From Clostridium sp. (lineage in GTDB: Bacteria; Bacillota; Clostridia; Oscillospirales; Acutalibacteraceae): a stretch of 64,000 bases of DNA. The notes beneath the pieces are model-generated. The model was not told the DNA's origin. It ran no database searches and saw only the letters and a program-made list of their open reading frames with translations. Shown in pieces: positions 23,569 to 44,724 of this stretch (within the stretch, counting starts at the first letter, position 1; each line of letters starts with the position of its first letter). A program made the translations under genes and the position numbers. The stretch is taken from positions 2,170,889 to 2,234,888 of the forward strand of contig CP181261.1 in assembly GCA_047833665.1 (NCBI GenBank). The letters run 5' to 3'.

Positions 23569-23588
23569 TTGCTGCACATGTGCAGCAA
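23569..23588. promoter_or_regulatory. perfect 20-bp palindrome in the ABC-transporter leader (candidate operator)
   Basis: TTGCTGCACATGTGCAGCAA. It is followed at 23622-23656 by a 13-bp-stem hairpin (agtctccggcttg / caagtcggagact) and a T-rich tail. Confidence 0.4.
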
Positions 23589-24174
23589 TTGCCGAAAAAG
23601 AAGAATAATCGCAACTGTAGAAGTCTCCGGCTTGTCATACAGTCAAGTCGGAGACTTGTTCTTAATTTAAAACTGAATGTTCATCAGGGAGGAAATGTGG
23701 TGTCTGAAAAAATTTTGACATTCAGTAACCTTGATGTCACGATCAAAGGCAATACAATATTGCATATTAGTCATGATATTACTATAAACCGAGGCGATGT
23801 CGTCGGAATTATAGGTGCAAACGGCGCAGGGAAAACCACTTTCGTTAATTGTATCATCAACAGGATCCATTTTGAGGGCGACATGCAACGATTTTTTACT
23901 TCTGACGAATTAGGTATACAATTCCAATCAAATTCCTACAACAAAATCATGAAGGTCAGTGAGCTAATACAAATTGTATCCGGAAAGCACCGCTTTGACA
24001 GTGCGCTGATGAATCAAATTCGTGAATTTGATATTGAGAGTTTACTAAATAAAAAAATCGGAAAGCTTTCCGTTGGGGAATCTCAGAGACTGACACTGTT
24101 TCTGGTACTGTACAAGAATCCGAATTTTTTGATTTTTGACGAACTCACGACTGGCTTAGATTATCAAAAACGAA

Positions 24175-25382
24175 CTTAAATTGCAATAACAAATTGAACA
24201 CTTTCACTGGATAAAGTTATCTACGGGTTTAAAGTATAAATTGTGTCCAGTTGAGCATCAAACAGTTCCTCAGGGGTCTGATAACCTAATCGTTTCCTAG
24301 GCGTGGCGTTTATCTCGTCTGCAAACATTAAGATTTGTTCGGCGGTAAAGCCATTGATGGAGCGACCCTTTGGGATATATTTTCGTAGTATGCGATTGGT
24401 CCTCTCATTTACAGGTCGTTCCCAAGCAGAATAGGGATGAGCAAAGTAGATTGCCGTGCCTAGTTCTTCAAAGGCTGAAAATGCCGCAAACTCACTGCCG
24501 TTATCTGTGGTAATACTGCGAAACACCTGCGAAAATTTCTCGCCATACTGTTCCTTTAGCTGTTCCATGGCACTGGCAACACCGGTGGTTGTTTTGCCGT
24601 CAATTCGAATTGAAAGATAATATCCTGTCAGGCGCTCTACAATGGTAAATACAACTGCCTCACCGCTTCTTTTTCGGCCCAGTACCGTATCAGATTCCCA
24701 GTGTCCAAATGTGTTTCGCTCTGCTACCTCAGGTGGCCGCCAATCAATGGATTTCCCATTGATACGCTTAGAAAGCCGTGGTTTTCTGCGAGAATGCCTA
24801 TTTAATACCTCAGGAAGTTCAAATAGCGTGAGCGGTAATTCCCCTTTCCACAGCATATGATATAGAGTTTTTGTACATGGGATTTCCTTGGCTGGAAAAC
24901 GATGTTCGCTTCGGGCCCGCCCTACGCACTCATCAAAAGACCAATTATGCTTACGAACCTTTTTAACCATCCAACGGATGAAGTCGGAGTTCCTGGATAC
25001 CGTTCTAGGGCGATGGCAACGACTGCGATTCGCTTTGTAGACTGCAGCTCCACGTTTGGCTGAGTAGCCGGGTTTGCGACCTCGGCCGGAGTATTCCGGT
25101 GTGCCACGTCGTAGTTCATAGCCCACGGTAGAGGGGCTGCAATTGATTGCGCGAGCAATCTTTCGATTGCTAAATCCCATCTTCTTTAACTGTTGGATTG
25201 CGCCACGCTCTTCTGCTTTAAGATGCTGTCCCCTCTTGCGTTCTTCGATCTTTATGATAGAATGGTTCTTGTCCATAGTGTTCAGGCCTTTCTGTCAGTA
25301 TTTAGTGTGGTAACTTTATCCTAACAGTTCCCTGTGCGCTATGGAATCTTTTTATGTGTTCAATTTGATTTTACAATCTACC
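24175..25382 (-). mobile_element. IS30-family insertion sequence (1208 bp)
   Basis: Subterminal IRs (taaattgcaataacaaattgaacac versus the reverse complement of gtgttcaatttgattttacaatcta). Flanked by the 13-bp direct repeat tatcaaaaacgaa (24162-24174 and 25383-25395). Confidence 0.85.
24221..25276 (-). CDS. IS30-family DDE transposase
   Basis: 351 aa. HTH region followed by HWESDTV, TDNGSEF and NERTNRILRKY. Confidence 0.9.
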   Translation of the reverse strand: MDKNHSIIKIEERKRGQHLKAEERGAIQQLKKMGFSNRKIARAINCSPSTVGYELRRGTPEYSGRGRKPGYSAKRGAAVYKANRSRCHRPRTVSRNSDFIRWMVKKVRKHNWSFDECVGRARSEHRFPAKEIPCTKTLYHMLWKGELPLTLFELPEVLNRHSRRKPRLSKRINGKSIDWRPPEVAERNTFGHWESDTVLGRKRSGEAVVFTIVERLTGYYLSIRIDGKTTTGVASAMEQLKEQYGEKFSQVFRSITTDNGSEFAAFSAFEELGTAIYFAHPYSAWERPVNERTNRILRKYIPKGRSINGFTAEQILMFADEINATPRKRLGYQTPEELFDAQLDTIYTLNP

Positions 25383-25801
25383 TATCAAAAACGAAACCGT
25401 CTTCTGCAGATTGTGCGCGGTTACAGTAAGAATAAAACCGTGCTTACTATTACGCATTATTTTGAGGAACTGACAGACTGGGCAAATAAATTTCTGATTC
25501 TACATAAGGGAAACCTGTTGTTTTGGGGAACGTATCAAGAACTGCAGGAAAAATATCCATACTACTCTATTTTGAAAATACCGAATGGCGCAAATTTATC
25601 TGCTATGGGGCCTGATATGCAGAATTATAAATTTATCAACCATCTTGATGAAGGGCATGATGGTATCGCCGTCAAAACTCTTGATGAACAAAATGCGATC
25701 ATCAGCAACCTTTCCAAAGTTGGAATCCCTATTGAAATTGTGCCGCATGGGCTCTATACACTTTATACATTGGCTCTCATACAGTACAGAGGTGTCGGCA
25801 A

Positions 25802-26629
25802 ATGAAAGATTATATTTGGATTGATCTAAAAATTATGTTTCGTATTCCTCTGTCCGTCTTTTTTTCCCTAATCTACCCGATTATTATGATGTTTATCATC
25901 ATACTTTCCTATGGCAATATACCTATTGGCAATGGATATCATTTAGTAGATAAATACTTTATGATAGCCATAGGAATGGGCATTCTGCCCTTGACGATAA
26001 TCTCTTATCCAATGTGGATGGGTAACAGTTTAGAAAACAACAGCCTCGACCGGTTGAATTTTTTTGGAATAAAAACCAGCAAAGTCCTCATTGGTGATAT
26101 CATCGCTCATATAATTCTGTCTATTTTCTCCATGGCTATTGATATTCTAGTTGCATGGATTGCGTTTGGCTTACAGTTTCCAGATTTCAGCCATTTTATA
26201 GCTTTTCTAATTCAATATATTTTGGCAGTAATTACAGCTTTAATGCTGGGCGGTGTTGTTGCCCTCTTGTTTCAGAATACGCAGATTCTGATGCCATTTG
26301 GGCTGGTTGTTATGTTTGCCGCTTACATGTTTTGCGGTGTATTTATTACATTTGATCAAATGCCGGATGCATTCAAAAAAATTGCTTCTTATATTCCCAT
26401 GAAATATGCAATGAACGATTTTTTTGATATCTGGACTAAAAAAATTTATTGGGATCGAACTTTTCTGATTTTATCGGCTATCTACATGGTTATTCTCGGG
26501 GTTGTTTTAACAATTTTACTAAAATGCAATGCGAAACTGAATACAAAGAAAATTAGTGCTTTACAGAATCCAGTTAAGGATTCCGAAATTTCATCAAAAT
26601 CTAATCATGTAAAAGGGGATTCTATATGA
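25802..26629 (+). CDS. ABC-2 type transporter permease
   Basis: 275 aa with about 6 TM helices. Overlaps the ATPase stop by 4 nt. Confidence 0.75.
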   Translation: MKDYIWIDLKIMFRIPLSVFFSLIYPIIMMFIIILSYGNIPIGNGYHLVDKYFMIAIGMGILPLTIISYPMWMGNSLENNSLDRLNFFGIKTSKVLIGDIIAHIILSIFSMAIDILVAWIAFGLQFPDFSHFIAFLIQYILAVITALMLGGVVALLFQNTQILMPFGLVVMFAAYMFCGVFITFDQMPDAFKKIASYIPMKYAMNDFFDIWTKKIYWDRTFLILSAIYMVILGVVLTILLKCNAKLNTKKISALQNPVKDSEISSKSNHVKGDSI

Positions 26630-26949
26630 AACAACAGGTAAAAAACAATCAACTGTTACGCATCGTCCTAGAGATTGTGGGAGGATTCATTGTTGCAGTT
26701 GTATTGTGCGCTGTTTTGATCTTTATCGGTTATTACCACACACATTCTGCTGGCTTGACGGCGTATACAGTTCGGTTCTTTCAAATTCCAATCTATGAGA
26801 TTGCAACAACAGAGGGACAAATGACCGGAACCGCATTAAACCAGAATATGTCGGTAATTGGTATTATCTGTTCTGTAATCTGCATTATTGTTTTTGAGAC
26901 AATTGCTAGTGTCAAGGGAAGTTCGCAATTTTGGGACTCCGGAAAATGA
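26626..26949 (+). CDS. small membrane protein; 3' end supplied by the IS256-like terminus
   Basis: 107 aa with two hydrophobic helices and a 4-nt overlap with the permease. The last ~15 codons (..SVKGSSQFWDSGK*) read through the IS end sequence tagtgtcaagggaagttcgcaattttgggactccggaaaatga. Confidence 0.55.
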   Translation: MKQQVKNNQLLRIVLEIVGGFIVAVVLCAVLIFIGYYHTHSAGLTAYTVRFFQIPIYEIATTEGQMTGTALNQNMSVIGIICSVICIIVFETIASVKGSSQFWDSGK

Positions 26950-28236
26950 ATTAGGCTACGTTTAATAGTATCTGAATAGATTTTGGATTTAAGTATGCTC
27001 TGGAAACAGACCAGTCTTCCGCATATTCCATGAGACATGTTGTTACCAGACGTAGATAGGAATCCGGATTAGGGAATATTCCTACTACGCTGGTTCTGCG
27101 GCGGATTTCCTTGTTCAGCCGTTCCAGCATATTAGTTGAAGAAATTTTGCGGGCATCAAGTTCCGGAAAAGCATAGAAGGCTAGAGAATCTTCCAGTCCA
27201 TCTTCCAGGAATTCGATTGCTTTTGGAAAGCGTTTTCCATATTGTTCTGATATTTGCTCCGCGCGCTGTCTAGCTATTTCAGCGGAGGGTGCCAACCAAA
27301 TTTCTTTTAACTGAGCCGCAAAGGACTCTTTTTCCTTCTGGGGTACATGAGCTAAAATATTTCGCATGAAATGGACTTTGCATCGTTGCCAAGAGGCTCC
27401 CGGAAAACTCTCACGGATGGCTGCAATCAGCCCTTTATTCGCGTCTGAAACCACCAGAAGCGGTGTTTTCAGTCCACGATCTAAAAGACTTTGAAACAAT
27501 TGAGAATAACTTTCTTTTGATTCATCTAGCATTGGCTCTACGGCGAGGATATCCCTATGCCCCTGTTCATTGACGCCGCAAACTACCATCACAGCCATGC
27601 TGACGACCCGGCCATCCATACGAATTTTTTCATACAGTGCATCTGTCCAAATGACAGGATAGCGACCCGTCAGAGGCCGGCTGCGGAAGTACTGTACCTG
27701 CTCATTAAGGCCTTTCGTCATTTCACTGACTTGACTGCGAGAAAGATTTTCAATTCCAAGACTGCGGGCTAGTTTCTCCATCTTTCGCGTAGATACACCC
27801 TGCACAAACGCTTCCTGAACCACTTGAATCAGCGCTGCTTCACTGCGCTTGCGTTCTGTTACGAAAAACGGGATATAGCCCTGATTTCGGAGTTTTGGTA
27901 CCATCAGATACATCGTCCCCATACGAGTATCCAGTCGACGCGGCCGATAGCCGCAGCGGTAATCACGGCGGGATGGATTGTGTGCATTCTTTTCCGCGCC
28001 AATAATACCGGAGACCTCTGCTTCCATCAGACGGGTACACAGCCATTCCAGCATCGACAGCATTGGATCCGGCTGCGCCATACATTTTAGTAGCAATTCT
28101 GTCAAATCTGTGGTATTCTTTTTGTGAGTCATTGGGTATCTCTCCTTTTTTGAATGTTTTCTCACCATTCATTTTATCGGAGTCCCAATGACTTTTCTAT
28201 ACCTTTATGAAATTGCGAACTTTATTGTACTCTATC
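26905..28236 (-). mobile_element. intact IS256-like insertion sequence
   Basis: Complete transposase plus both conserved termini (tagtgtcaagggaagttcgcaat... and ...ttgcgaactttattgtactctatc), which are shared by the relics elsewhere in the window. Exact ends are accurate to about 10 bp. Confidence 0.8.
26951..28132 (-). CDS. IS256-family (Mutator-type) transposase
   Basis: MDGRVVSMAVMVVCGVNEQGHRDILA and LERLNKEIRRRTSVVGIFPN motifs. The start was set at MTHKKNT (28132), which has an AAGGAGAG RBS. The ORF track extends to 28168. Confidence 0.9.
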   Translation of the reverse strand: MTHKKNTTDLTELLLKCMAQPDPMLSMLEWLCTRLMEAEVSGIIGAEKNAHNPSRRDYRCGYRPRRLDTRMGTMYLMVPKLRNQGYIPFFVTERKRSEAALIQVVQEAFVQGVSTRKMEKLARSLGIENLSRSQVSEMTKGLNEQVQYFRSRPLTGRYPVIWTDALYEKIRMDGRVVSMAVMVVCGVNEQGHRDILAVEPMLDESKESYSQLFQSLLDRGLKTPLLVVSDANKGLIAAIRESFPGASWQRCKVHFMRNILAHVPQKEKESFAAQLKEIWLAPSAEIARQRAEQISEQYGKRFPKAIEFLEDGLEDSLAFYAFPELDARKISSTNMLERLNKEIRRRTSVVGIFPNPDSYLRLVTTCLMEYAEDWSVSRAYLNPKSIQILLNVA

Positions 28237-28307
28237 TTCATTTCGTCAAGGCAAAGAAGCAGCATTAGGAGGCCAAAGCGAAGTAATGGATACAAATTGT
28301 AAAAAAA

Positions 28308-28352
28308 GGCTCTATGTCAATAGTTGGGTAACCCAATTATTGACATAGAGCC
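28308..28352. repeat. back-to-back ISL3 terminal inverted repeats (45-bp near-perfect palindrome)
   Basis: GGCTCTATGTCAATAGTTGGGTAAC + CCAATTATTGACATAGAGCC match the two ends of the ISL3 element at 53554..54935, with nothing between them. Confidence 0.8.
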
Positions 28353-28368
28353 ATTTGTGCGTTCATAA

Positions 28369-29052
28369 TCAAAAAGTTTCATCTTCTGTTACAGCTTGGT
28401 AAACCAGCTTAAGATCCCTCATCAGCGATTTGATGTCTTTATAACTGACATAGCGGGTACTGAACCGAATCTGATGGATGATACAGCGCTGAATCTGTGC
28501 TTGCGGATATACCGCTAAAATGGCATCCATGAAAACAAATGGATACACCCGATTCAAAGGACAGGATTGCCATGCTGTAATTTCCGGCATAATCTTGTCT
28601 GTGATTTTACTGACTAGTTCCGGTGATATTTCTACATCGTACAGATTTTAAATTTGTTCAGAGATATCTCTCTGGCTCATTCCACAGGAGTACAGAGCCA
28701 AAATTTTTTCTTCCATTCCTTCGGCATTACGATTATATTTGCCGATGATTTTGGGCTCATATTTGCCATTATCCTCGCTAGGAATATTTGCCTAAATCTT
28801 TCCAGTCTGTGTTTTTACGGAGTTCTCTTGAAACCCGTTTCTGTGATTTTTCGACTCTGCCATTTCATCACCATTGCCATTTGGCAGCCTTTTGCTTTTT
28901 TCATAACTTAATTTTTTCGCAATTTGTTTCCATAACCCAGTGAATAACATTATAGAACATGTTTCTTTTATTTCCATAACATCTGCGGCGCTGCCAAACT
29001 TCTGGCTATTGACATACTCTCTTAAAAGTTCTGCCGGTACTCTGCTCATCAA
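28369..29052 (-). pseudogene. second IS256-family transposase type, fragmented
   Basis: ORF 28792..29052 looks like the N-terminal part (ELLREYV...NHRNGF) and ORF 28369..28590 like a central/C-terminal part (YPFVFMDAI...RCIIHQIR). The middle is missing. A 16-bp perfect hairpin (agactttctttcagac at 29054-29069, gtctgaaagaaagtct at 29095-29110) lies in the leader. Confidence 0.7.
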
Positions 29053-29196: not shown

Positions 29197-29493
29197 TTAT
29201 CCCTGCGAAGTATATATTGCATCAAGCCTTGTGGGAATACTTTCATCACCATAAGGTACTTCCTTAATCAGTTTATCATAATAACGGCTCATAAAAGCAT
29301 TGCCCTCTTTTGTCAGAAGAGAATCATTTAGTGAAACATTGGCAAAATCATTGAGTTCCAAAACTTCTAGGCCATCATTATTAAGATAGTGATGATCTTT
29401 CAGCCACTCGAATACGAGCTTAAAATGTTTGATAACTGTTTGTTTTGACACCCCGCCGTCGATCTGCCAATCAGCTTTGTCGTAGATTTTCAC
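29197..29493 (-). CDS. 98-aa protein, last gene of the candidate system (possible immunity/partner of the nuclease)
   Basis: GTG start 2 nt after the upstream stop, with an AGGAG RBS inside the upstream gene. Acidic soluble protein with no motif I can name. Confidence 0.6.
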   Translation of the reverse strand: MKIYDKADWQIDGGVSKQTVIKHFKLVFEWLKDHHYLNNDGLEVLELNDFANVSLNDSLLTKEGNAFMSRYYDKLIKEVPYGDESIPTRLDAIYTSQG

Positions 29494-29495: not shown

Positions 29496-30074
29496 TCAGT
29501 CTCTCCTTTCAATATGTGTGGTAACACCTTCTGGAATTTCCGCCAGTGAACCGTCCGACATTTTAATGTAGTTACCCCCTCTTGCGCGTATTCTCTGCTC
29601 TTTGGAAGACTGTTCCGTTTTATCCGCTGTTTTGGAAGTTACTTCAATGGAATCAATAACTTTTCCATCTTTCACTACAACAAAATCGATCCTTCGCGCT
29701 TCACCAGTTTCGGGATCCTTTACGATATTTCCGTCTTTGTCACGGAGATATGCTTCGGAAATAATCGTATGGGGCGGTGAAGGATACTGTTCTTCCAGTT
29801 CTCCTCTCACCTCGTTTTCTCGAGCAAGTCCGTCCATTTTATTTTTGATAGGAAGATTTATTTCATGTACATCATCCGTTGTTTCTAACGGTGAATGATG
29901 CTTATTCTCAATAGAAAGATCTGCTTCCTGCACATCCTCAACAGTTATTTCCAATGGTTGATCATACTCACTCATTGGCTTATCAAACACCTTGTTTTTC
30001 GCCAACTTGCCGAGCGGGCACTCTGAAAATCGCTTTACTGCAGTCTCGGTGACTTCTTTCAAAGCAAAATTCAT
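29496..30074 (-). CDS. 192-aa protein with a C-terminal PD-(D/E)xK-like (restriction-endonuclease-fold) domain
   Basis: The pattern GLARENEVRGELEEQY ... ARRIDFVVVKDGKVIDSIEVTSK resembles the G..E / D / ExK layout of Hjc/Mrr-type nucleases, although the K is shifted. The N-terminal acidic half contains an internal repeat (EDVQEADLSIENK / DDVHEINLPIKNK). ATGA overlap with the upstream gene. Confidence 0.6.
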   Translation of the reverse strand: MNFALKEVTETAVKRFSECPLGKLAKNKVFDKPMSEYDQPLEITVEDVQEADLSIENKHHSPLETTDDVHEINLPIKNKMDGLARENEVRGELEEQYPSPPHTIISEAYLRDKDGNIVKDPETGEARRIDFVVVKDGKVIDSIEVTSKTADKTEQSSKEQRIRARGGNYIKMSDGSLAEIPEGVTTHIERRD

Positions 30075-33000
30075 ATTTTAACACATCTTTCTTTTACGTA
30101 ATCCACCCATTGCATATATAACCTCTTTCTAAATTCCACTTCTTCTTGACCCATGCTAAAGTCTTTCATAAAGCACTGGTTGATGGCAAGAACAACACTA
30201 TCGGCAGCATCTGGAATAAACTGACGCACTATTTTTGCAAGTTTCGCAGTTAACTCGGAGTTGTCAGAGGAATTTATGATACAATTTTCTACGTGTGATC
30301 GAACACCAAAAATATCTGTGATACACCGAGAAAGTTGTTGGAAATTAGTCTTATCCCACATTGAAGGTCTGCCATCCGCTTTAAACTTAGTAAATTGTTG
30401 CTCAATAAACTCGCGGTTACTGGAAGACAATCCGAGCCAATCTATACCGCGTTCTATTTTGTTTACATCAAAATCCAGCCGTTCTTTTACTCTGCCTTGA
30501 ATTAAGAAAAGTAGCAGTTGTTTCCGCAAATTGGCAGTATCAGCTTCTGCAATACTCACCTCGGTATGATATGGCTGTTCGGATATGCTGCACTTGTTTA
30601 TCTTTACCAACACCGGCTCAACCCAATCATTCTGATAAACGGCAGCTACACCACGTTTAAGTTTTGATAACTCCTCTATCTGCTCTTGATTAAGGCCTGC
30701 ACCTAGTCCAACAAGTTCACGGTCACTTTGCTCCGGCAAGCGCAAGATTATCTTTGTATTGGTATTCCGAATCACTGACATATCCAAAAGTCCCGGTGAT
30801 TGGTCGGCAATTATGAACCCCTCGCCATAGGTCCGCATTTCCGCTATGGAATTGGACAGCAACTCCACCGATTTGCCCAACAGATTTGAACTTTCAGATA
30901 ATTGCTGCGTAGATGTGCGCTTAAGGAGATTATGTGCCTCCTCGAGGACGGTAATATGTGTAAGTGGGCTGTTAGCTTTACCGGAAGCCATCCGATATTC
31001 GTTCAGCCTCATAACAAGCAGCCCCATAATCAGCGACTTCGTTTCTGTCGAACCAACACGACTCAAATCCACAATCGCACTTTTATCAAACAATTCGCTA
31101 TCTCTTAAGTCATTATTGCAGAAAATCAGGCCGTTTAATCCATTAGTCAGAGAACGAACCCGAGTAAGCAGAGCACCTGCGTAATCACCTTTGCTTTCCG
31201 CTGAATATTTAGACTCGTTTATAACATTTTCAATTTGCTCCAACAAATCCGCAAAATTTGGGAATACATCCCCTCTGGGATTTTCTGACAAAGCAATATT
31301 CCATCCTGCCGCAATATAAGCCCTTTCCATTGCTTCCTTTAATATCGCAGGCATCGCGGCATACATCGGCCAACATACATTAAAAATTTCAACTAACCTG
31401 TCTAAATGTTCCAAAACGTGGATATCCGATGGAAAACGGAACGGATTAATTCTTAGTAATTCTGACTTCTTTGGATTTGTACCATAAACCGCCACATCGG
31501 GAAATTGCCCGAACACGTTCTTATATTCACCTTTTGCAGGTTCAATCACCAAAAATGGGATATTGTACACATTCCTCAACTGGTTTAAAATTTCGTATAC
31601 CGTATTACTCTTGCCGGAGCCTGTTGAGCCGGTAATAAACGTATGCATCGTGAGGGAATCGCGGTCAAGGCGAACCTCTGTATCATTCTCTTTTCCCATA
31701 CTGAACACTTTACCAAGAATAAAATCATGTCCACCGTCGCACCGATTGTATTTCACAACCTCTTTACCGAAATCAGCGTGCTCAATAACAGGAAAACCGC
31801 ATACAGATTTTCTCGGAAGTCCCATTTGAATTGCAAGTTCGTTGCCGCTGATAAGAGATGATGCAGTAACGGGCACATTTGCCGATTTTGAACGGTATTG
31901 AAACACAGGGTGAATAAAGTTCGTTATGTATTCACGGAGCAACGGCAGTTGCTTTTTATTCTGCCGCCCCCAAAAGTTAATGGCAGACGTTTCAACGCCG
32001 GATTTTTCGCCTTTCATAAGTGCTTTATAAGTTCCTGCCGCCATTTCGGCGGTTTCTTGACTGTCAGACAGAAAATATGCCGCGCACTCCCACATACCGA
32101 GACTTTCACACTCTTCTATGCGCTTTAACTGCAAATCAATTCGTTCCAGCGTATCGATAAGTGTTTTATTTTGCATAGTCAGCTGCATATGATTGGACGT
32201 ACCGGTAGTAAGTCCTCTCGTTTGGGTATAATTTTCACTCCTGCTTTCGCTGGTGGAACTCGATTCCCCTTTCGTTTCAGACTGGTTTTCAGACCAATTC
32301 TCCGAAGCGGATGTTCCTTTTGTTTTGGAGGATGGATTTATTGCGTTTAAACCGATATTTCCTGCAGCAATAGCAGCGGCTGCAGCTAAACTTGCACCGC
32401 CCGTCAGCGGGGCAGTAACGATGCTTGCTACACCGAGCAGCGCTCCACCTACACCTTTCGCGATGGCAGCGGCAGTATTCGGTTTGGTGGTAGATTCATT
32501 TTCTGATCTCCCTGTGGAATGACTTGTTCCTGTTTGTACGGAAGTGTTCGTGGAATGGGAAGTGCCGAACATTGTTCCTTTTGACAAAGCGTTAGAAGTG
32601 CTGATAGCAGTATTTGTACCGTAACTTAATTGCATATTGGCAAATGGCGACAGCTGTGTATATATCGTTTCATAGGCACGGCGTATTTCCGCCAATTGTT
32701 CGGGCGATGTACTCTTAGCCAACACAATAGCAGTATAGCGCTGCCCATGCATGGCAAGTGCAAGTTTTTCAAGTCCTTGTATAAACTTTTTGTTGTCTTT
32801 GAACTCTTCATCCTTATTTTGGGCAACGCAAGATACGGCAGCGATATTCTTTGATGGAATATCAGCAAGAAAAGCCTCCGCCTGCGGGTCAAGCAGATCT
32901 GCTGTTTTGACTCCGGGGAACTGCCCGCAAAGCGCGTTCCGCAACGTATCTTTCAGGGACTTTGTAGTTCGCAAATCATCAAGAGAACGGACACCCATAT

Positions 33001-33379
33001 AAAAATCCGTCTTTTGTCCGTTGCTGTCCATGATAAGGAACACACCGCAATTCAGATTTTGCACCGCATTAAACACGGAAGCAAACTTGTATGTTGAATA
33101 TTCGTCGTTCTGATAAACCATTTCGGTTATCTTAAACAAACGAATTTTGCTGATTTTTTTCAAGCTATCATCCAGTGGAATAATTTCCAAATCTGTAAGT
33201 CGAGTAAGATAGTTTTTAAGAACAATGTCATCCACAAGCTTACCTGCTTCGGCAAGCTGCGCTTGGAGTGAATCATAGCTGGGCATATCATTTTCCATTT
33301 GGTTTTGCGGGAGGCAATCATTATGCTCTATTTCAGCTCTTTCTGGCTTTCTCTCCATGATATCCGCAAATTCGTTCAT
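30071..33379 (-). CDS. ~1100-aa membrane-anchored HerA/FtsK-type (DUF87-like) P-loop ATPase
   Basis: Numbering follows the 1107-aa ORF-track translation. Walker A GSTGSGKS is at aa 589-596 and the HerA-style Walker B VLEEAHNL at aa ~816-823, followed by IIADQSPGLLD..NT.TKIILRL. A Gly/Ala-zipper hydrophobic hairpin (AAAIAKGVGGALLGVASIVTAPLTGGASLAAAAAIAAGNIG, aa ~308-348) is flanked by S/T/N-rich low-complexity segments. The preferred start is the ATG at 33379 (GGAG 9 nt upstream, 1 nt after the upstream stop); the ATG at 33394 is an alternative. Confidence 0.8.
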   Translation of the reverse strand: MNEFADIMERKPERAEIEHNDCLPQNQMENDMPSYDSLQAQLAEAGKLVDDIVLKNYLTRLTDLEIIPLDDSLKKISKIRLFKITEMVYQNDEYSTYKFASVFNAVQNLNCGVFLIMDSNGQKTDFYMGVRSLDDLRTTKSLKDTLRNALCGQFPGVKTADLLDPQAEAFLADIPSKNIAAVSCVAQNKDEEFKDNKKFIQGLEKLALAMHGQRYTAIVLAKSTSPEQLAEIRRAYETIYTQLSPFANMQLSYGTNTAISTSNALSKGTMFGTSHSTNTSVQTGTSHSTGRSENESTTKPNTAAAIAKGVGGALLGVASIVTAPLTGGASLAAAAAIAAGNIGLNAINPSSKTKGTSASENWSENQSETKGESSSTSESRSENYTQTRGLTTGTSNHMQLTMQNKTLIDTLERIDLQLKRIEECESLGMWECAAYFLSDSQETAEMAAGTYKALMKGEKSGVETSAINFWGRQNKKQLPLLREYITNFIHPVFQYRSKSANVPVTASSLISGNELAIQMGLPRKSVCGFPVIEHADFGKEVVKYNRCDGGHDFILGKVFSMGKENDTEVRLDRDSLTMHTFITGSTGSGKSNTVYEILNQLRNVYNIPFLVIEPAKGEYKNVFGQFPDVAVYGTNPKKSELLRINPFRFPSDIHVLEHLDRLVEIFNVCWPMYAAMPAILKEAMERAYIAAGWNIALSENPRGDVFPNFADLLEQIENVINESKYSAESKGDYAGALLTRVRSLTNGLNGLIFCNNDLRDSELFDKSAIVDLSRVGSTETKSLIMGLLVMRLNEYRMASGKANSPLTHITVLEEAHNLLKRTSTQQLSESSNLLGKSVELLSNSIAEMRTYGEGFIIADQSPGLLDMSVIRNTNTKIILRLPEQSDRELVGLGAGLNQEQIEELSKLKRGVAAVYQNDWVEPVLVKINKCSISEQPYHTEVSIAEADTANLRKQLLLFLIQGRVKERLDFDVNKIERGIDWLGLSSSNREFIEQQFTKFKADGRPSMWDKTNFQQLSRCITDIFGVRSHVENCIINSSDNSELTAKLAKIVRQFIPDAADSVVLAINQCFMKDFSMGQEEVEFRKRLYMQWVDYVKERCVKI

Positions 33380-33380
33380 A

Positions 33381-33965
33381 CTATTTCGCTCCATTCGTCA
33401 CAACCATTGCAACAGCGGCACCGGCGGCAGCACCGATGACAGCACCGGCTACCACGGCAGTGCTTGCCGCCGCAGCCACCACTGCCCCTGCTGCTGCACC
33501 GACTGCCGCTCCACCGGCAATTTTTGCACCGCGATACGTACCATTTAGCTGATCGCAGCGCTTTTGTTCTTGGTAACTTCTGTGTTGAATTTGCTGATGG
33601 CTGCCAGATGTTCTCCTCTTAGCGTGATCGGTTCCATTTGACAACGAAGTTTTCTGACCAGTGGAAGTAACAGGGTGCAAATATCTGACCACTTCTTTGA
33701 GATGCTCAATACGTTCGTGGGAAAAATTGTTAACTACTTGAACCATCAGCTTATTCATATAATCATCGTTCCAATGGGCTTTATCGAGTTGGAATTCACG
33801 TCCATCGTGCGGATCATAAAGTCCCTTCACATTTCGGGCAAGTTTTTCCATCTCATCAAACTCCGCAAAGGTCGGATCAACTAACAAGCTGTTTTTCATC
33901 ATGATGCGGATGCTTTTGATATCACCATTTGACACTGCGTTTTTAATGGACTCTTCAACTGTCAT
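33381..33965 (-). CDS. 194-aa protein: soluble helical N-domain + C-terminal Gly/Ala-zipper membrane segment
   Basis: The start at 33965 (MTVEESIK) has a strong AGGGAGGGTG RBS and lies 13 nt after the upstream TAG. The C-terminal ~45 aa are GAKIAGGAAVGAAAGAVVAAAASTAVVAGAVIGAAAGAAVAMVV. Confidence 0.75.
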   Translation of the reverse strand: MTVEESIKNAVSNGDIKSIRIMMKNSLLVDPTFAEFDEMEKLARNVKGLYDPHDGREFQLDKAHWNDDYMNKLMVQVVNNFSHERIEHLKEVVRYLHPVTSTGQKTSLSNGTDHAKRRTSGSHQQIQHRSYQEQKRCDQLNGTYRGAKIAGGAAVGAAAGAVVAAAASTAVVAGAVIGAAAGAAVAMVVTNGAK

Positions 33966-33978
33966 AGATACACCCTCC

Positions 33979-36279
33979 CTAAATTTCAAGAATAGAGTTG
34001 ACTTTACCTTTGATTTCGTCAAGCCATGCCAGTTTCCTCTCGCACTCTTTGATACGTTGCTCGGCTTTTGCCTTGTCGTTGGCGTAGCTCTCTAATTCCT
34101 TAAGTTTGTTATCGAGGATTTTGTCAAGGCGTTTGAATTCACCATCAAAATATTTGGCAATCTTGTTTGCTTGCTGCAGTGCATATAAAAGAGCTGCGGA
34201 ACCATTGTTAAATAAACTCTTTTCGATTGGCATGAAAAAGTTGCGTACCATTTCAGAGGCGTCGACAAATTCAACAGTCTTGTATTTTTGACGGTAGTAA
34301 CCTTTTTCTTGGAACCACGTCCACGGCTTGTACCATTTCTTGTCTGTATTTTTAACCCATTCCTTACCATCTTCGACACGCTTTTCTCGAATGAACTCCG
34401 CTAATTGGAAGTTTTCAGCATTCACGCTTCCGCCCATTAACTTCAAAGGATCAATTTTTGCACCGTTAAAGCCATCTATGTTGATGTCCTCAGCCAACCC
34501 TTCCAATTTTTTCTTGTATTCTTCAAGCAATGCTTCGCTTGTTTTAATAAGAGTTGTTCTAATCAGGTCGTCCAGTTCCGACTCAAAATATGGCTCTAGA
34601 CTTTCTGCAAACCGTTTAAGTCTATTGATTTCTATATCAATATCAGCGATATCAATCTCTATATCACGAAAGCTATCAATTTTCTGTGTAATCTGATTTT
34701 GGAATTTTTCAAGAATTCCTTCTACAATTTCTGGCGATTCCTGTTTGACTTTTCGCAAAGCTGTGTCAACAGCAACTTTGAATTTCTTTGCTGATTCACC
34801 ATCATCAATTTTCTTGCGAATTAAAGCAATTTGCTTTGACAGTTTCTCATTCTCGTCACAGTTTTTCGCAAGTTCACGCTTGGTTTTCTCATAACAATCC
34901 ACTTCGTCCAGTTTATGGATAAATGTATCCACAATGTTCTTAATCTTTGCCGTCTTAGCATACTTTTGCACATACTGGCGAATCGCAGCTTCCAACGATG
35001 GAATGCCTGTATGTATGAGGGCTTCATCATAGATGGCATTTTCACTTTTGCTTGCTTTTGCTTTAGTTAATTGTAGCGCGATATCGTTGCGAATACCGGT
35101 GGGTAAGGGTGCGTAAGTTTCAAAGTGCATGGTTTCGTTTCGATTGAGTTTTCTAGCCTTTACATACGCTTCGTCTCTTGTGTCCTCATCAACATCTGCA
35201 CCGCTTGTGATAAGACGAAAATCGAGGGCTGGCAGCGCGGCAGCGGGAAATAAGTTCGGGTTGTCAATACCGTGCGTTTTCAGATACGCACGCACGCGTT
35301 CCAAAGTCTGTTCCGTATCGCCATCTTCTTTCTTGCGGCCATCAAGTTTATTGATGACAAAGATAAAACGGTCTTTGGACTGCTTGCCGCCGACAGACAT
35401 GCTCTCGGCTACGCGTTTGAGCAAGGTGTAGTCGTCATCTGTACCGAACTCGCCTGTCATAATATAAAGGACCAATGCTTTTGATGATTTGCTGAGAAAT
35501 TCGCTTTGCACTTTTTTGTGGTGCGGGTCGCGGGAGTTGTTCGGTCCGGGTGTGTCAATCAGCACGAGCGATACGTCCTCGGATGACACAAACGGAATAT
35601 TTCCTTCAGCTCGTATTTCAGACACGTTTTCATCAGCGTTCAGCCGTTCCATTGTAGAATAGTTTAACGCTTCGTGCGTTTCTGTGAGCTGTCCCTCTTT
35701 ATTGTAAACTTTGGCTTTCCACGGCACGTCCTTGTCATTGGTATCTTTTATCCTCGTAATGATTGCCGTACACGCCTCTTGTTTGGAAGGCATCAGTTTA
35801 GTACCGAGCATAGCATTTATCAGTGTGGATTTGCCGGCGCTCATCGTCGCAACAACGCACACCTCAAAATCTTTGCTTTTTGCATGTTCAAACGCACTGA
35901 TAATTTGCTTGTCACGCAGTTCGTCAAACGGTCCCTCTTGAATTTCCTTAAACACATTATCAATCAAGGCTTCTTTGTCTGCCGTTTCTTTAGCGGGCTT
36001 ATGTTCAAGCTTGAAGGTCAGCTCATGCCGTTTTTGAGCTTCGGTAAAAGCAGATTTTAAATCCTCATAGTCGAGCAAAGTGCCATGAAATGTCACTTCA
36101 AATTCCGTATCGTTATACTCATCGATCAGAATACGCGGCAAATCTTCTACCCATTCTTGCAAGTGTGTGCCTTTGGCGGCTTTTTCGCCAAGTTGGCTGT
36201 TTTGCGCTAATTGATTACCGTCTACTGTAATTTCAGTTTCAAGTTTATAAGGATTGTATTTTATAAAGACTTTTTTCAT
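33979..36279 (-). CDS. dynamin-like GTPase (bacterial DLP), 766 aa
   Basis: G1 ATMSAGKSTLINAMLG (aa ~144-159), G2 region KQEACTA, G3 LIDTPGPN, G4 VINKLD. A long coiled-coil/stalk-like C-terminal half. ATGA overlap with the upstream gene. Confidence 0.85.
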   Translation of the reverse strand: MKKVFIKYNPYKLETEITVDGNQLAQNSQLGEKAAKGTHLQEWVEDLPRILIDEYNDTEFEVTFHGTLLDYEDLKSAFTEAQKRHELTFKLEHKPAKETADKEALIDNVFKEIQEGPFDELRDKQIISAFEHAKSKDFEVCVVATMSAGKSTLINAMLGTKLMPSKQEACTAIITRIKDTNDKDVPWKAKVYNKEGQLTETHEALNYSTMERLNADENVSEIRAEGNIPFVSSEDVSLVLIDTPGPNNSRDPHHKKVQSEFLSKSSKALVLYIMTGEFGTDDDYTLLKRVAESMSVGGKQSKDRFIFVINKLDGRKKEDGDTEQTLERVRAYLKTHGIDNPNLFPAAALPALDFRLITSGADVDEDTRDEAYVKARKLNRNETMHFETYAPLPTGIRNDIALQLTKAKASKSENAIYDEALIHTGIPSLEAAIRQYVQKYAKTAKIKNIVDTFIHKLDEVDCYEKTKRELAKNCDENEKLSKQIALIRKKIDDGESAKKFKVAVDTALRKVKQESPEIVEGILEKFQNQITQKIDSFRDIEIDIADIDIEINRLKRFAESLEPYFESELDDLIRTTLIKTSEALLEEYKKKLEGLAEDINIDGFNGAKIDPLKLMGGSVNAENFQLAEFIREKRVEDGKEWVKNTDKKWYKPWTWFQEKGYYRQKYKTVEFVDASEMVRNFFMPIEKSLFNNGSAALLYALQQANKIAKYFDGEFKRLDKILDNKLKELESYANDKAKAEQRIKECERKLAWLDEIKGKVNSILEI

Positions 36280-37586
36280 AAACTTCCTCCAAAAAGTATT
36301 TTTTCCAGGCCGTAAAGCCCACTTTTCTTGCTCATTTGGATAAGTTCTGAGTCATTTGCATTGCTATGTACTCCATCAACATATTTTGACAGATCATACT
36401 CCGCTCTGCTGAACTTCTTGACAAACAAGTCGTAATCATCCTGTTCGTCTTCTGTCATTTGTTCTCCGTTTGCCTTTAGTTTAATAAGAAAGGCAAAGTA
36501 GGATGAAAGCGGACAAATCAGCGGCTTTTTGAATCCTATGTTGCATAAATCTTTTTTCACTCCTTCAATGCTTTCTTTTATGGAATCGTCCGTACTCTTG
36601 AAGTCATCAAGTTTATTGAGCACGAACACTACCTTCTCTTCAGGTACATTTTCAAACACCCATTGCAGATGTACCTTTTCTTCATCTGTTCCAAGTTTGT
36701 TGGCGTTTAAAATGTAGATAAGAGTATTATAGCGTTCCTCTTTCAACGCTGTTCGTGTAATCTTCCTGTGCTGTCGGTTTATTGCGGAGTTGACCCCCGG
36801 TGTGTCAATAATGCAAACGCGATTAATGGGAACGGTTGTCCGAAAATATGATGCGACACTGCTTACCATTGAACGGTCGACATTTGCGAGATCATTATAG
36901 TTTGCATTAAGATTGAGCGACGATGTGAACAAATGAACGGTATTATCTTCGAAAAGCTTATTATAGAGGTAGCACAGGTTTCCTGTACAGGCTTCCTGCG
37001 ATGTCCTTGTCAACGGTTTGCCGATAATTGCGTTTATCAGTGTTGACTTGCCGGCGCTCATATTTGCAGTCACGATAAAGCGTGTTTCTGACTGCGACGC
37101 AAACCTTTTGTTAGATCGGAATTGTTTGACTAATTCAGCAGTAAAGGCTATTTTTGTCGGAATCTGCTCGTCGGTAAATAACGCGGTCAGTAAAACGTCT
37201 AACTGAGCAATTTGCCGCTTATTCAAATACCCTTTAAGGCAATCTGCTCCTCTTCGGATTTTACTTTCATCAAGAAGAATCAAAGCGATATCGCAAAGCA
37301 GCCAATAACGATACTTCTTCCTCCAAGGCCTTATTCTGCTGTTGATGACAGAGCGAACGACACCTTCACGCTCTTTGTCGGTCAATTTGAGGTCTTTAGC
37401 GTTGCCGGTTAAAAAAGTACAATACTGTGCAAGTCGGCCATCGGTATACACATCATGGTCCGCACATTTCCTGATAAGCGATTTCAGTGCGATAAAATAT
37501 TGCATTTTTAATTTCGGCTTAGCTTTTTTCATAGGATGAGCTTCAAGTGTAATTGCTTCTATAAAATTTGGACAATGAATAGTCAT
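36276..37586 (-). CDS. dynamin-like GTPase, short form, 436 aa, with a distinct ~170-aa N-terminal region
   Basis: G1 ANMSAGKSTLINAIIG (aa ~174-189), G2 region SQEACTG, G3 IIDTPGVN, G4 VLNKLD. GAAGGTG lies 11 nt upstream of the ATG at 37586. Confidence 0.8.
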   Translation of the reverse strand: MTIHCPNFIEAITLEAHPMKKAKPKLKMQYFIALKSLIRKCADHDVYTDGRLAQYCTFLTGNAKDLKLTDKEREGVVRSVINSRIRPWRKKYRYWLLCDIALILLDESKIRRGADCLKGYLNKRQIAQLDVLLTALFTDEQIPTKIAFTAELVKQFRSNKRFASQSETRFIVTANMSAGKSTLINAIIGKPLTRTSQEACTGNLCYLYNKLFEDNTVHLFTSSLNLNANYNDLANVDRSMVSSVASYFRTTVPINRVCIIDTPGVNSAINRQHRKITRTALKEERYNTLIYILNANKLGTDEEKVHLQWVFENVPEEKVVFVLNKLDDFKSTDDSIKESIEGVKKDLCNIGFKKPLICPLSSYFAFLIKLKANGEQMTEDEQDDYDLFVKKFSRAEYDLSKYVDGVHSNANDSELIQMSKKSGLYGLEKILFGGSL

Positions 37587-44715: not shown

Positions 44716-44724
44716 ACTTATGTA

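Follow-up and report, generated by a model that had tools for sequence, protein, structure and literature searches.

What does a HerA/FtsK-type ATPase do in a bacterial cell when it carries a long N-terminal region without family assignment and a glycine/alanine-rich hydrophobic segment set between polar arms? The gene that raises this question lies in a 64,000-nucleotide stretch of a Clostridium sp. genome (contig CP181261.1), referred to here as the window. It is read from the minus strand; the plus-strand translation of 30071-33394 contains stops throughout. The closest database protein, P0001, is 100% identical to the ORF and begins at Met6, so the start is probably at 33379, giving a protein of 1102 aa.

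Table 1. Operon genes in the window and domains of the ATPase (residues numbered on the 1107-codon ORF)
Feature	Position	Strand	Remarks
Dynamin-like GTPase 1, 436 aa	36276..37586	minus	Pfam Dynamin_N E = 3.5e-13; first operon gene in the window
Dynamin-like GTPase 2, 766 aa	33979..36279	minus	Pfam Dynamin_N E = 3.9e-17
Small protein with C-terminal Gly/Ala-rich hydrophobic double segment	33381..34022	minus	
HerA-type ATPase fusion ORF	30071-33394	minus	Uninterrupted, 1107 codons
N-terminal alpha/beta domain, residues ~39-256	32627..33280	minus	AlphaFold2 core pLDDT about 60-85
Arm 1, residues ~257-303	32486..32626	minus	Polar, strand-like; Ser/Asn/Gly every second position
Hydrophobic Gly/Ala-rich tip, residues ~304-355	32330..32485	minus	Two ~17-residue halves, APLTGG turn
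Arm 2, residues ~356-404	32183..32329	minus	Polar period-2 segment mirroring arm 1
Middle alpha/beta domain, residues ~405-560	31715..32182	minus	AlphaFold2 pLDDT 70-86
HerA/FtsK-type P-loop ATPase core, residues ~561-950	30545..31714	minus	Pfam DUF87, PDB HerA sequence matches, Foldseek
Walker A GSTGSGKS, residues 589-596	31607-31630	minus	
Walker B VLEEAH, residues 816-821	30932-30949	minus	
C-terminal helical domain, residues ~951-1107	30074..30544	minus	AlphaFold2 helices, pLDDT ~80
Effector, 192 aa	29496..30074	minus	~50-aa N-terminal leader and C-terminal nuclease-like domain
Putative cognate immunity protein, 98 aa	29197..29493	minus	Found with effectors of this type in the same 6 loci

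The ATPase and Its Family

The sequence features quoted in the sequence-only reading of this DNA were all found at the residues it gave. That reading took the gene for a genuine fusion, and the two-gene artefact is now excluded. At least 1,700 homologues at 48-82% identity keep the whole ~1,100-aa layout, which places the features far beyond chance. With residues 6-560 as the query, matches (E<1e-30) were obtained in 401 clusters (50% identity), whose complete members are nearly all 1000-1200 aa in length. Judged from this sequence conservation, the fusion is ancient and genuine.

The assignment as a HerA-type ATPase is one on which Pfam DUF87, the PADLOC HerA models and sequence matches to HerA in the PDB agree. 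Pfam places DUF87/HerA at residues 562-793 with 53.2 bits against a cut-off of 23.2, the catalytic motifs are intact with catalytic residues invariant among homologues, and Foldseek matches the core to HerA and VirB4. The proposal that the C-terminal ~520 aa are HerA-like holds for the core only; a helical domain of its own, outside that core, takes up the last ~155 residues. This domain has no Pfam family and is the least conserved part of the protein, with a mean identity of 49% among close homologues. The middle alpha/beta domain precedes the ATPase, where the N-terminal domain of HerA would sit; it has no Pfam match and a mean identity of 82% among close homologues. The N-terminal domain has 27 residues that are invariant across 129 homologues. 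It has no match in Pfam, none better than E = 0.03 when the isolated domain is searched against the PDB with Foldseek, and matches only at a TM-score of 0.29 or less in a viral structure library, so the lack of a family assignment noted earlier is borne out.

The best-scoring NCBIfam model is NF033849 “serine-rich protein” (ser_rich_anae_1; E = 4.6e-30), a model of ~1,160 residues that covers residues 407-895. The score of 104 bits against a cut-off of 650 indicates that the ATPase is not a member, and NF033849 is probably a sister branch of the same ATPase family. The model carries no functional information.

The Arm-Tip-Arm Insert

The Ser/Thr/Asn-rich segments that flank the hydrophobic region (Ser, Thr and Asn make up 0.55 of residues 271-308 and 0.49 of residues 351-405) had been described as low-complexity linkers. 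They are instead conserved, patterned, strand-like segments; the strict period-2 Ser/Asn/Gly signal in both ~45-residue arms was reached by 0 of 2000 shuffles. The arms look like long beta strands carrying a Gly/Ala-rich tip; AlphaFold2 also draws beta strands here, but with a pLDDT of ~30.

The Gly+Ala share is 0.52 in residues 309-350, and the 15 most hydrophobic 19-mer windows of the whole protein (Kyte-Doolittle 1.45-1.77) all fall in this region. AlphaFold2 confidence at the tip is ~25-35. The APLTGG turn is conserved, and conservation reaches at least 90% at G316, P324 and G328 (numbered from Met6). The two-part Gly/Ala segment between symmetric polar segments is thus present here as proposed, but is missing from about one-fifth of diverse members (11 of 51, with 40 having the tip). 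With a borderline hydropathy (Kyte-Doolittle 1.5-1.8), the tip may insert into a membrane; this value and halves of only ~17 residues suggest a re-entrant hairpin. A pore-forming role would be pure speculation.

The Operon and Its Distribution

The ATPase gene belongs to a conserved operon found in 80 genome loci, in the order dynamin-like GTPase, dynamin-like GTPase, small Gly/Ala protein, ATPase, nuclease toxin and immunity protein, at times preceded by a WYL regulator (22 of 35 upstream genes scanned were WYL/HTH regulators). This order is kept across phyla down to ~30% identity. Distant plasmid-borne copies from E. coli, Treponema, Bacillus and Lactococcus retain it. Dairy plasmids of Lactococcus and one E. 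coli plasmid carry the operon, and there are copies on conjugative plasmids. Monoderm hosts and diderm ones (Veillonella, Prevotella, E. coli, Treponema) share an identical operon, which includes no extra outer-membrane gene at the diderm-host loci. In the one variant without the dynamins and the small protein, the ATPase-toxin-immunity trio remains, and the hydrophobic tip too is missing from the insert of the ATPase.

Judged by PADLOC matches in absolute terms, the flanks are rich in known defence genes. Flanking genes match MADS, PARIS (AriA), AbiLi, Septu (PtuA), ATPase-Toprim, NsnB, HEC-01A, PbeA and type IV restriction, and a Lactococcus plasmid copy has an Abi family gene about 6 kb away. 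The operon is most likely horizontally mobile and of a conflict type. The copy in the window has neither a WYL gene nor known defence genes beside it. It sits there among IS elements, sugar-utilisation genes and peptide transporter genes.

Dynamin-like GTPase 1 shows GKS, DTPG and NKLD motifs, and 69 of 81 loci have a homologue in the corresponding place. The second GTPase, conserved in 71 of 81 loci, has a long, helical C-terminal half, and its start overlaps the stop of the first by 4 nt. The small protein is 213 aa as a mechanical ORF and 194 aa in the JGI call, and its N-terminal domain has no family assignment. Its last 45 residues reach Kyte-Doolittle 19-mer values of up to 2.36 and 1.86, and the Gly/Ala hydrophobic tail is found in 65 of 77 homologues; the protein is probably tail-anchored. 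The Pfam glycine-zipper families match it only weakly (E = 0.4-0.7).

Toxin and Immunity Genes

The effector start overlaps the ATPase stop by 4 nt. The C-terminal domain of the effector, shared with 6 other loci, is probably a PD-(D/E)xK/NERD-like (restriction-endonuclease-like) nuclease, with a weak match to NERD itself (E = 0.096). Its leader matches the N-termini of WHH, LHH and Endonuclease_NS_2 effectors at other loci. The toxins are modular, with a shared ~50-aa leader, a swappable nuclease domain and a matching immunity gene. Recognised nucleases account for about 51 of 56 effectors (29 Colicin-DNase/WHH, 13 Endonuclea_NS_2, 7 LHH, 1 HNH and 1 NERD), and no other toxin activity was seen among the 56. 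The downstream immunity families comprise 19 DUF6985, 13 SUKH and 3 YezG-like genes of the 49 scanned. Nuclease domains swap together with their cognate immunity genes, and the toxin domain is shared by only 26% of locus pairs at 60-70% ATPase identity.

The leader occurs only on the gene directly after the ATPase, and within +/-10 kb no other gene bears it. The effectors are small (166-350 aa), with no receptor-binding or translocation domains. Across ~70 loci, a second full cassette was found in one and a fragment in another, and orphan cassette arrays in none.

Resemblance to Known Systems

The anti-phage systems HerA-DUF4297 nuclease and Sir2-HerA and the archaeal HerA-NurA likewise place a HerA-type P-loop ATPase beside a nuclease effector with which it probably acts. 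Their ATPase core matches in sequence and fold, and both they and this operon are found in defence islands. The ATPase described here is twice as long, however, adding the N-terminal domain, the ~150-residue arm-tip-arm insert and the C-terminal helical domain, and its scores against the NCBIfam HerA models fall far short of the cut-offs. In place of Sir2, DUF4297 or NurA, the effector here is a leader-tagged toxin of His-Me or restriction-endonuclease-like type, accompanied by an immunity protein, and the operon further includes a small membrane protein and the pair of dynamin-like GTPases. Eleos (“Dynamins”, LeoA/LeoBC), a defence system of two genes, likewise has neighbouring genes for two dynamin-family GTPases in mobile regions rich in defence genes. 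The resemblance of the present pair to its models is weak and partial (LeoA for GTPase 1, E = 2.3e-10; LeoBC for GTPase 2, E = 7.8e-07), and the NCBIfam LeoA/HP0731 model scores 20 bits against a cut-off of 325. Unlike in Eleos, which has no ATPase, toxin or immunity gene, the pair is always followed by four more genes.

Type VIIb secretion (EssC, LXG/EsaD toxins) also uses an FtsK/HerA-superfamily ATPase, membrane-anchored there and putatively so here, with toxins of conserved N-terminal part and variable nuclease C-termini and SUKH/YezG-type immunity genes directly downstream. The present operon lacks the WXG, LXG, EsaA, EssA and EssB components, its ATPase has one HerA-clade P-loop domain against three FtsK-like domains in EssC, and its leader is ~50 aa against a helical domain of ~200 aa. 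The nuclease-only cargo, the presence in diderm hosts and the dynamin pair are further differences. VirB4/TrwK has the same two-part build of a large N-terminal region and a C-terminal HerA/VirB4-clade ATPase; it is membrane-associated, as the ATPase here putatively is, and lacks the arm-tip-arm insert. The full-length AlphaFold2 model aligns with TrwK/VirB4 over ~1,100 columns in Foldseek (TM-score of 0.48 normalised to the target), and no VirB4 or type IV secretion signal was seen in the isolated N-domain, the sequence profile or the gene neighbourhood.

Proposed Function

The ATPase is best explained as the motor of a conflict operon. The reading preferred here, at a little below an even chance, is a membrane-coupled anti-phage or abortive-infection system, known from its genes alone, in which an Eleos-like dynamin pair is joined to a HerA-nuclease module. 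It draws on the conservation of the operon, the nuclease-only cargo, the immunity genes, the leader confined to the gene after the ATPase, the swapping of toxin domains, the WYL regulator and the defence-gene flanks, together with the occurrence of the same operon in monoderm and diderm hosts, the single cassettes and the absence of the tip in the dynamin-less variant. There are also precedents in dynamin-pair and HerA-nuclease phage defence. The Eleos pair, a two-gene dynamin operon, shields B. subtilis from jumbo phages in a manner that requires its GTPase motifs (preprint 10.1101/2022.05.11.491447), and HerA-nuclease and Sir2-HerA pairs have been investigated as phage-defence systems. In such a system, the ATPase would assemble into a HerA-like cytoplasmic ring whose arms pair into a long beta hairpin; in a hexamer, these hairpins may form a stalk of 12 strands. 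The Gly/Ala tip would dip into the cytoplasmic membrane beside the similar tail of the small protein, and the dynamin-like pair would link the complex to membrane state. The toxin would be bound to the ring via its leader. ATP hydrolysis, triggered for instance by the entry of phage DNA or by damage to the membrane, would strip the immunity protein or feed DNA to the nuclease, which would then cut invader DNA, host DNA or both. The defence reading is weakened by the borderline hydropathy of the tip, the low AlphaFold2 confidence, the absence of the tip in 11 of 51 members, and a window copy without WYL or neighbouring known defence genes. In addition, SUKH and YezG-like proteins with WHH, LHH and colicin-DNase toxins are hallmarks of secreted interbacterial polymorphic toxins rather than of typical intracellular defence effectors, and the cargo-independent leader looks like an export or targeting signal.

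The same observations give some weight to the main alternative, rather unlikely but appreciable, of a new toxin-export or delivery machine for bacterial competition. A membrane-anchored HerA/FtsK-type ring would recognise the leader, detach the nuclease from its immunity protein in the manner of EssC in type VII secretion, and push it through a channel of ATPase and small-protein Gly/Ala hairpins, with the dynamin-like pair driving membrane fission or fusion to release vesicles or deliver the toxin to a neighbour. The genes follow the polymorphic-toxin pattern, in which a conserved leader is joined to a swappable C-terminal toxin and the cognate immunity gene lies alongside, and Gly/Ala hydrophobic hairpins occur on both subunits. 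Leo dynamins have been linked to the secretion of toxins or vesicles. The toxin and immunity families match those described for secreted toxins (PMC3482391, PMC3113570), type VII and type IV secretion are powered by FtsK/HerA-family ATPases (PMC3482391), the best full-length Foldseek matches are to TrwK/VirB4 of the R388 secretion system, and an ETEC pathogenicity island harbours the Leo dynamin genes, for which a contribution to virulence was suggested in work cited by 10.1101/2022.05.11.491447. Against export stand the tiny toxins devoid of receptor-binding or translocation domains, a recognised cargo of nucleases only where type VI, type VII and contact-dependent inhibition repertoires are broad, and the lack of an outer-membrane component in diderm hosts. 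Single cassettes at nearly all loci without orphan arrays and a leader confined to the adjacent effector also argue against it, while the WYL regulator and defence-island context favour phage defence. It is very improbable that the operon is a membrane-repair or envelope-stress module retained in its island by the toxin-immunity pair as a mere addiction cassette. B. subtilis DynA, which clusters at the damaged membrane and delays phage lysis according to PMC8844932 and PMC12998192, offers a precedent, and the operon is mobile with IS elements on its flanks here. However, the toxin gene overlaps the ATPase stop codon, its leader is conserved in this operon only, and the trio persists without dynamins in the variant. 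Very improbable too is a VirB4-like ATPase of a reduced DNA-transfer or uptake apparatus (conjugation- or archaeal Ced-related) with a nuclease processing the moved DNA. The full-length alignment with TrwK/VirB4, copies on conjugative plasmids and a weak match of the ATPase domain to NCBIfam “DNA-translocating ATPase CedD” (E = 1.3e-25, 90 bits against a cut-off of 600) speak for it. The conserved neighbourhood holds no VirB3, VirB6, VirB8, VirD4, relaxase or Ced membrane genes, however, and TIGR00929 VirB4 scores 18 bits against a cut-off of 643. In the PDB, the profile of the family picks up chains of HerA but none of VirB4, Foldseek with the isolated N-domain gives no match to VirB4, and a DNA-processing nuclease would need neither a swappable toxin domain nor a tight immunity protein.

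A literature search found no paper describing the dynamin-ATPase-toxin operon. The ATPase fusion protein is a member of a large unstudied family, and most of the information on it is held by the operon context. The operon is most likely a new phage-defence or toxin-delivery machine.

The operon and its conservation

The ATPase fusion protein is encoded within a compact operon together with five other genes. The arrangement is well supported as a mobile conflict system, in which a leader-tagged nuclease toxin, restrained by an immunity protein, is linked in function to a HerA-type motor. The parts are all of known kinds: a HerA-effector module, a dynamin pair like that of Eleos (the two-gene LeoA/LeoBC dynamin defence system), a polymorphic toxin-immunity cassette and a WYL regulator. 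The six genes of the window copy are tightly packed: two pairs of neighbours overlap by 4 nt, and two other pairs are ~2 nt apart. Across the loci compared, the dynamin pair is present in 69-71 of 81 and the small protein in 66 of 81, the exceptions being mostly contigs cut short. The same operon, at ~30% ATPase identity, is carried by plasmids of E. coli, Treponema saccharophilum and Bacillus.

Features of the operon, its surroundings and the ATPase fusion protein (window nucleotides, or residues in ORF numbering)
Feature	Position	Strand	Remark
IS30-family transposase	24221-25276	-	
IS256/Mutator-family transposase	26951-28168	-	intact
Fragment of another IS256/Mutator-family transposase	28369-28590	-	73 aa
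Immunity candidate	29197-29493	-	98 aa
Effector	29496-30074	-	192 aa
ATPase fusion	30071-33394	-	
Small protein	33381-34022	-	Gly/Ala hydrophobic C-terminus
Second dynamin-like GTPase, longer	33979-36279	-	Dynamin_N E = 3.9e-17
Dynamin-like GTPase	36276-37586	-	Dynamin_N E = 3.5e-13
Maltodextrin/alpha-amylase cluster	41952-49849	-	two GH13 amylases, sugar-binding protein, permease subunits
N-domain, alpha/beta	residues ~39-256		AlphaFold2
Polar arm 1	residues ~257-303		AlphaFold2
Hydrophobic tip	residues ~304-355		AlphaFold2
Polar arm 2	residues ~356-404		AlphaFold2
Middle alpha/beta domain	residues ~405-560		AlphaFold2
ATPase core	residues ~561-950		AlphaFold2
C-terminal helical bundle	residues ~951-1107		AlphaFold2

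An HTH-WYL regulator accounts for 22 of the 35 upstream genes scanned in other loci, and a WYL gene also lies upstream in the Lactococcus, Treponema and Bacillus plasmid copies. The window copy differs from these, and from WYL-regulated defence operons of the BrxR/CapW type, in having no WYL regulator upstream; between 37587 and ~38900 there are only two short ORFs, of 60 and 70 aa, neither of which matches a family. A scan for promoters and terminators gave counts close to the shuffle expectation. The small protein ends in a double Gly/Ala segment (Kyte-Doolittle 2.36 and 1.86) that resembles the tip of the ATPase, and 65 of 77 small-protein homologues have such a hydrophobic tail. It matches the Pfam glycine-zipper families at E = 0.4-0.7 only. 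In four loci from uncultured bacteria (L022-L024 and L026), the gene order is altered, with two small proteins and a 300-aa effector, and L022-L024 have a second long dynamin-like gene downstream of the toxin-immunity cassette.

The ATPase and its arm-tip-arm insert

The ATPase ORF comprises 1107 uninterrupted codons; a plus-strand reading of the same interval was ruled out by the many stops in its translation. The true start is probably at 33379, giving a protein of 1102 aa, because the nearest database protein is 100% identical and begins at Met6 of the ORF. The sequence-only reading had placed a Walker A motif at 589-596 and VLEEAH at 816-821. Both stand, the former as GSTGSGKS and the latter as the Walker B motif, and both are invariant among 129 homologues. 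The HerA-like assignment is likewise borne out by Pfam PF01935 (DUF87/HerA), which matches residues 562-793 with 53.2 bits against a cut-off of 23.2. By analogy with the HerA and VirB4 structures matched by Foldseek, the protein would assemble into a hexameric ring with a central pore.

The AlphaFold2 model, built with 129 homologues, divides the protein into six parts (ATPase core and C-terminal bundle counted together), with a mean pLDDT of 66 and very low confidence in the insert. The composition that had been described for the insert is as stated. The Ser/Thr/Asn share is 0.55 in residues 271-308 and 0.49 in 351-405, while residues 309-350 are 52% Gly+Ala and contain the 15 top Kyte-Doolittle 19-mer windows of the protein (1.45-1.77). 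A glycine zipper had also been proposed, and three small-xxx-small motifs are indeed found in the hydrophobic stretch (residues 308-341); no Pfam glycine-zipper family matches the ATPase fusion at E<=0.01.

The description of the polar segments as linkers does not hold, as they are instead patterned. In the 129-sequence alignment, Ser, Asn or Gly occupies every second position at a frequency of 70-100%, over ~45 residues in each arm. In the two arms, period 2 accounts for 0.63 and 0.52 of the spectral power, and neither value is reached by any of 2000 shuffles. AlphaFold2 draws the arms as long strands (E270-286 and E363-379, in Met6 numbering) at a pLDDT of ~30. These strands would pair into a long beta hairpin, and the arms of a HerA-like hexamer could together make up a 12-stranded stalk whose end is hydrophobic and one face of which is lined by small residues.

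The tip consists of two Gly/Ala-rich halves of ~17 residues flanking a conserved APLTGG turn, with G316, P324 and G328 (Met6 numbering) conserved at >=90%. Judged from the sequence, a re-entrant hairpin is more likely than two full membrane spans, since both ends of the insert would have to be on one side of any membrane and the halves are short. Of 51 diverse members, 40 keep a hydrophobic 19-mer above 1.2 (31-55% identity), while the remaining 11 have the Ser/Thr-rich patterned region only. Thus, the patterned arms, rather than the tip, are the universal signature of the family.

The N-terminal region had been called unassigned, and it remains without a known family: Pfam searches at E<=10 returned nothing for the N-domain, the middle domain or the N-domain of the small protein. 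The C-terminal domain gave a single sub-threshold Pfam match (GfcC_N, 16.9 bits against a cut-off of 22.1). Modelled alone, the N-domain reaches a pLDDT of 62. Foldseek searches of the PDB with this model gave no E below 0.03, with only generic ferredoxin-like or Rep-like matches, and TM-scores against a viral structure library were <=0.29. No HUH motif occurs among the invariant residues. From the alpha-beta-beta-alpha-beta order of elements in the AlphaFold2 model, one candidate fold is the ring-building motif carrying a beta-collar insert, of the kind known from FliF or SpoIIIAG.

The toxin-immunity cassette

In most loci, the gene directly after the ATPase encodes a recognised nuclease, of varying family. 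Among 56 such effectors, there are 29 Colicin-DNase/WHH, 13 Endonuclea_NS_2, 7 LHH, 1 HNH and 1 NERD domain, and no non-nuclease toxin was found. The next gene (n=49) encodes DUF6985 in 19 cases, SUKH/SMI1_KNR4 in 13 and a YezG-like immunity protein in three. The effectors have in common an N-terminal leader of ~50 residues (consensus FKEVxE...RFADSPLGK...YDKPL), which is fused to unrelated C-terminal domains. Within 10 kb on either side, the leader profile matches only the gene directly after the ATPase, and no copy that could act as a homotypic docking domain was detected in the ATPase or the dynamins at E<0.1. None of the 56 effectors carries LXG, WXG, PAAR, Rhs or similar export domains, and their N-termini are not hydrophobic.

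In the window effector, the leader is followed by a weak NERD match (E = 0.096) and a D...ExxxK-like pattern, features of a probable nuclease of the restriction-endonuclease fold. Six other loci combine this domain with the 98-aa protein. The share of locus pairs with a common toxin domain falls from 52% at 70-80% ATPase identity to only 26% at 60-70%, which indicates that the cassettes swap relative to the ATPase. Second cassettes are rare, with a full extra pair in locus L043, a fragment in L074 and no orphan arrays. The two toxin-immunity pairs of L043 stand in tandem at 13200-15300.

Distribution and genomic surroundings

Among 5.8 billion proteins searched, 1,700 matches were obtained. 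The best 120 of these are 69-100% identical over their full length, are all ~1,100 aa and come from Paenibacillus, Clostridium perfringens, Turicibacter, Lachnospiraceae and Cytobacillus. Residues 6-560 alone match 401 clusters at 50% identity (E<1e-30), the complete members of which are nearly all 1000-1200 aa. The fusion is thus genuine and kept in other genomes, as had been asked of it; an artefact is ruled out by the constancy of length and layout across hundreds of clusters. Among the NCBIfam models, NF033849 ("serine-rich protein") scores best, at 104 bits for a cut-off of 650, and therefore a sister branch has already been catalogued, with no function attached.

Among 185,579 species-representative genomes (one per species), at least 528 relatives were confirmed. 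Their hosts include Clostridia, Bacilli and Negativicutes as well as Prevotella, Leptotrichia, Synergistaceae, Succinivibrio and one betaproteobacterium; several of these assignments are based on metagenome bins, and the diderm hosts include Veillonella isolate assemblies as well as E. coli and Treponema plasmids. In phage records, the sole relative is on one unannotated 7-kb fragment.

PADLOC matches to many defence models were seen among 131 flanking proteins, sampled with no formal background. These include MADS mad3/mad8, PARIS AriA, AbiLi, ATPase-Toprim and NsnB, together with HEC-01A, Septu PtuA, PbeA and type IV restriction. The window operon itself lies in a variable stretch of ~20 kb with IS30- and IS256-family transposases, framed by an Opp-type peptide ABC transporter (16327-22246) and the maltodextrin cluster. 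The base composition of the operon island does not stand out in the window. The transposases (24221-28590) are just downstream of the operon and seemingly interrupt an ABC-2 transporter set (23535-26949). Upstream, three small ORFs occupy 38968-40415 on the plus strand. One is thioredoxin-like, with a weak match to the PedC/BrcD bacteriocin-maturation disulfide isomerase, and another is a DUF2599 fragment; the interval may be the remnant of a bacteriocin locus.

Plasmid and variant copies

Three plasmid loci illustrate the range of the operon. In Lactococcus cremoris (L083, plasmid pB26B, 4660-15165), the full operon including the WYL gene is found on 58-kb conjugative dairy plasmids, represented by five near-identical records. 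It adjoins an Fst toxin, an Abi family gene lies ~6 kb away, and there are two small proteins, with the Gly/Ala tail on the second only. The whole operon is also present, at ~31% identity, in E. coli TW10590 (L084, plasmid pTW10590_133, 4703-13102), on an IncI-type conjugative plasmid of enterotoxigenic E. coli and near etpB; it occurs in one of 5,426 complete E. coli genomes. In this copy the ATPase tip is only amphipathic, and the 290-aa small protein ends in a single segment that is strongly hydrophobic.

The Exiguobacterium acetylicum plasmid p1-UTDF19-27C (L088, 5971-11933) has neither dynamins nor small protein. A 658-aa protein that matches no Pfam family comes first, followed by a 980-aa ATPase and then by an HNH nuclease and a SUKH protein; genes for a UvrD helicase and a PD-(D/E)XK nuclease lie upstream. 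The ATPase insert here has no hydrophobic tip. As tip, small protein and dynamins are missing together, this single case suggests that they form one membrane module.

Comparison with known systems

Matches of the PADLOC and NCBIfam HerA models and of PDB HerA chains fall on the same region of the ATPase, all well under family-specific cut-offs: HerA_Thermprot 54 against 800, HerA_antiphage 43 against 800, HerA_antiphage_2 35 against 850 and helicase_HerA 37 against 970. The partners also differ, being NurA, Sir2 or DUF4297 for HerA proper and a leader-tagged WHH, LHH, Endonuclease_NS_2 or NERD-like nuclease here. The family profile matches only HerA-type chains in the PDB, in the ATPase part only, and Foldseek aligns HerA chains with the full-length model over 430-580 columns.

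Two adjacent dynamin-family GTPase genes are shared with Eleos. However, the PADLOC models match in part only (LeoA at residues 251-334, LeoBC at 418-606), and NCBIfam DLP_LeoA_gen scores 20 against 325. A report on Pseudolactococcus laudensis (PMC13335696) gives an automated annotation of "dynamins LeoABC" with a toxin-antitoxin system in the defence island of an ICE, which could be the operon described here, with only its Eleos-like part recognised. Full-text literature searches turned up no description of a dynamin-HerA-toxin operon, and PADLOC 2.0 lacks a model set for such a system. In papers on the lactococcal plasmidome, dynamin is mentioned solely where DynA is cited.

Possible functions

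Phage defence is the favoured reading, held at a little short of an even chance. It draws on the WYL regulator and the defence-rich flanks, on the validation of two-gene dynamin defence (preprint 10.1101/2022.05.11.491447) and on the HerA-nuclease and Sir2-HerA defence complexes. It is further favoured because monoderm and diderm hosts share an operon that has no outer-membrane part, because a nuclease-only cargo fits an ATPase of the DNA-translocase type, and because orphan cassette arrays are lacking. The last point also separates the operon from polymorphic toxins, as does the lack of a recognised export route. The operon shares with those toxins a conserved N-terminus, a variable toxin C-terminus and an immunity gene of known family directly downstream. 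This resemblance counts towards a rival, toxin export between bacteria, which is judged the less likely of the two. WHH/LHH/colicin-DNase and SUKH/YezG-like families are classical secreted polymorphic-toxin families (PMC3482391, PMC3113570). Export would also account for a leader that is independent of its cargo, a predicted membrane tether on the ATPase, as in EssC or VirB4, and Gly/Ala hairpins on two subunits.

A further proposal, that the operon is a previously unrecognised protein-translocation machine and a new secretion or delivery route in monoderms and diderms, is given a modest but real chance. In such a machine, a HerA-type ring would hang from the cytoplasmic membrane by a beta-stalk with a Gly/Ala tip, recognise the ~50-aa leader and strip off the immunity protein. 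The nuclease toxin would then be moved across or into membranes, with the two dynamin-like GTPases assisting. Most of the probability left over by defence and export is shared by two minor readings, membrane repair with an addiction cassette and a VirB4-like DNA-transfer apparatus. For the latter, the longest alignments of the full-length model are with TrwK/VirB4 of R388 (~1,100 columns, TM-score 0.48 by target length, rmsd ~18 A), and the modelled N-terminal half may resemble the VirB4 N-terminal domain. Against it, the isolated N-domain has no VirB4 match in Foldseek searches of the PDB, TIGR00929 scores 18.4 bits against 643 on the ATPase, and the family profile finds no PDB VirB4 chain at E<1. 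The conserved neighbourhood of 80 loci contains no VirB3/B6/B8, VirD4 or relaxase.

Whichever function applies, the arm-tip-arm insert is an unusual structural device for an ATPase. With copies in gut Clostridia, Bacilli and Negativicutes, on dairy plasmids of Lactococcus and on one plasmid of enterotoxigenic E. coli, the family is accessible to experiment. If export were correct, the operon would constitute a new secretion system. If phage defence is correct, three themes that have been studied separately would be joined in one machine, seemingly at the membrane: dynamin-like GTPases in phage defence, HerA-nuclease complexes and polymorphic toxin-immunity cassettes. The operon would then show the on-demand release of a tightly inhibited nuclease, and would offer a testable handle on the role of bacterial dynamins in immunity.
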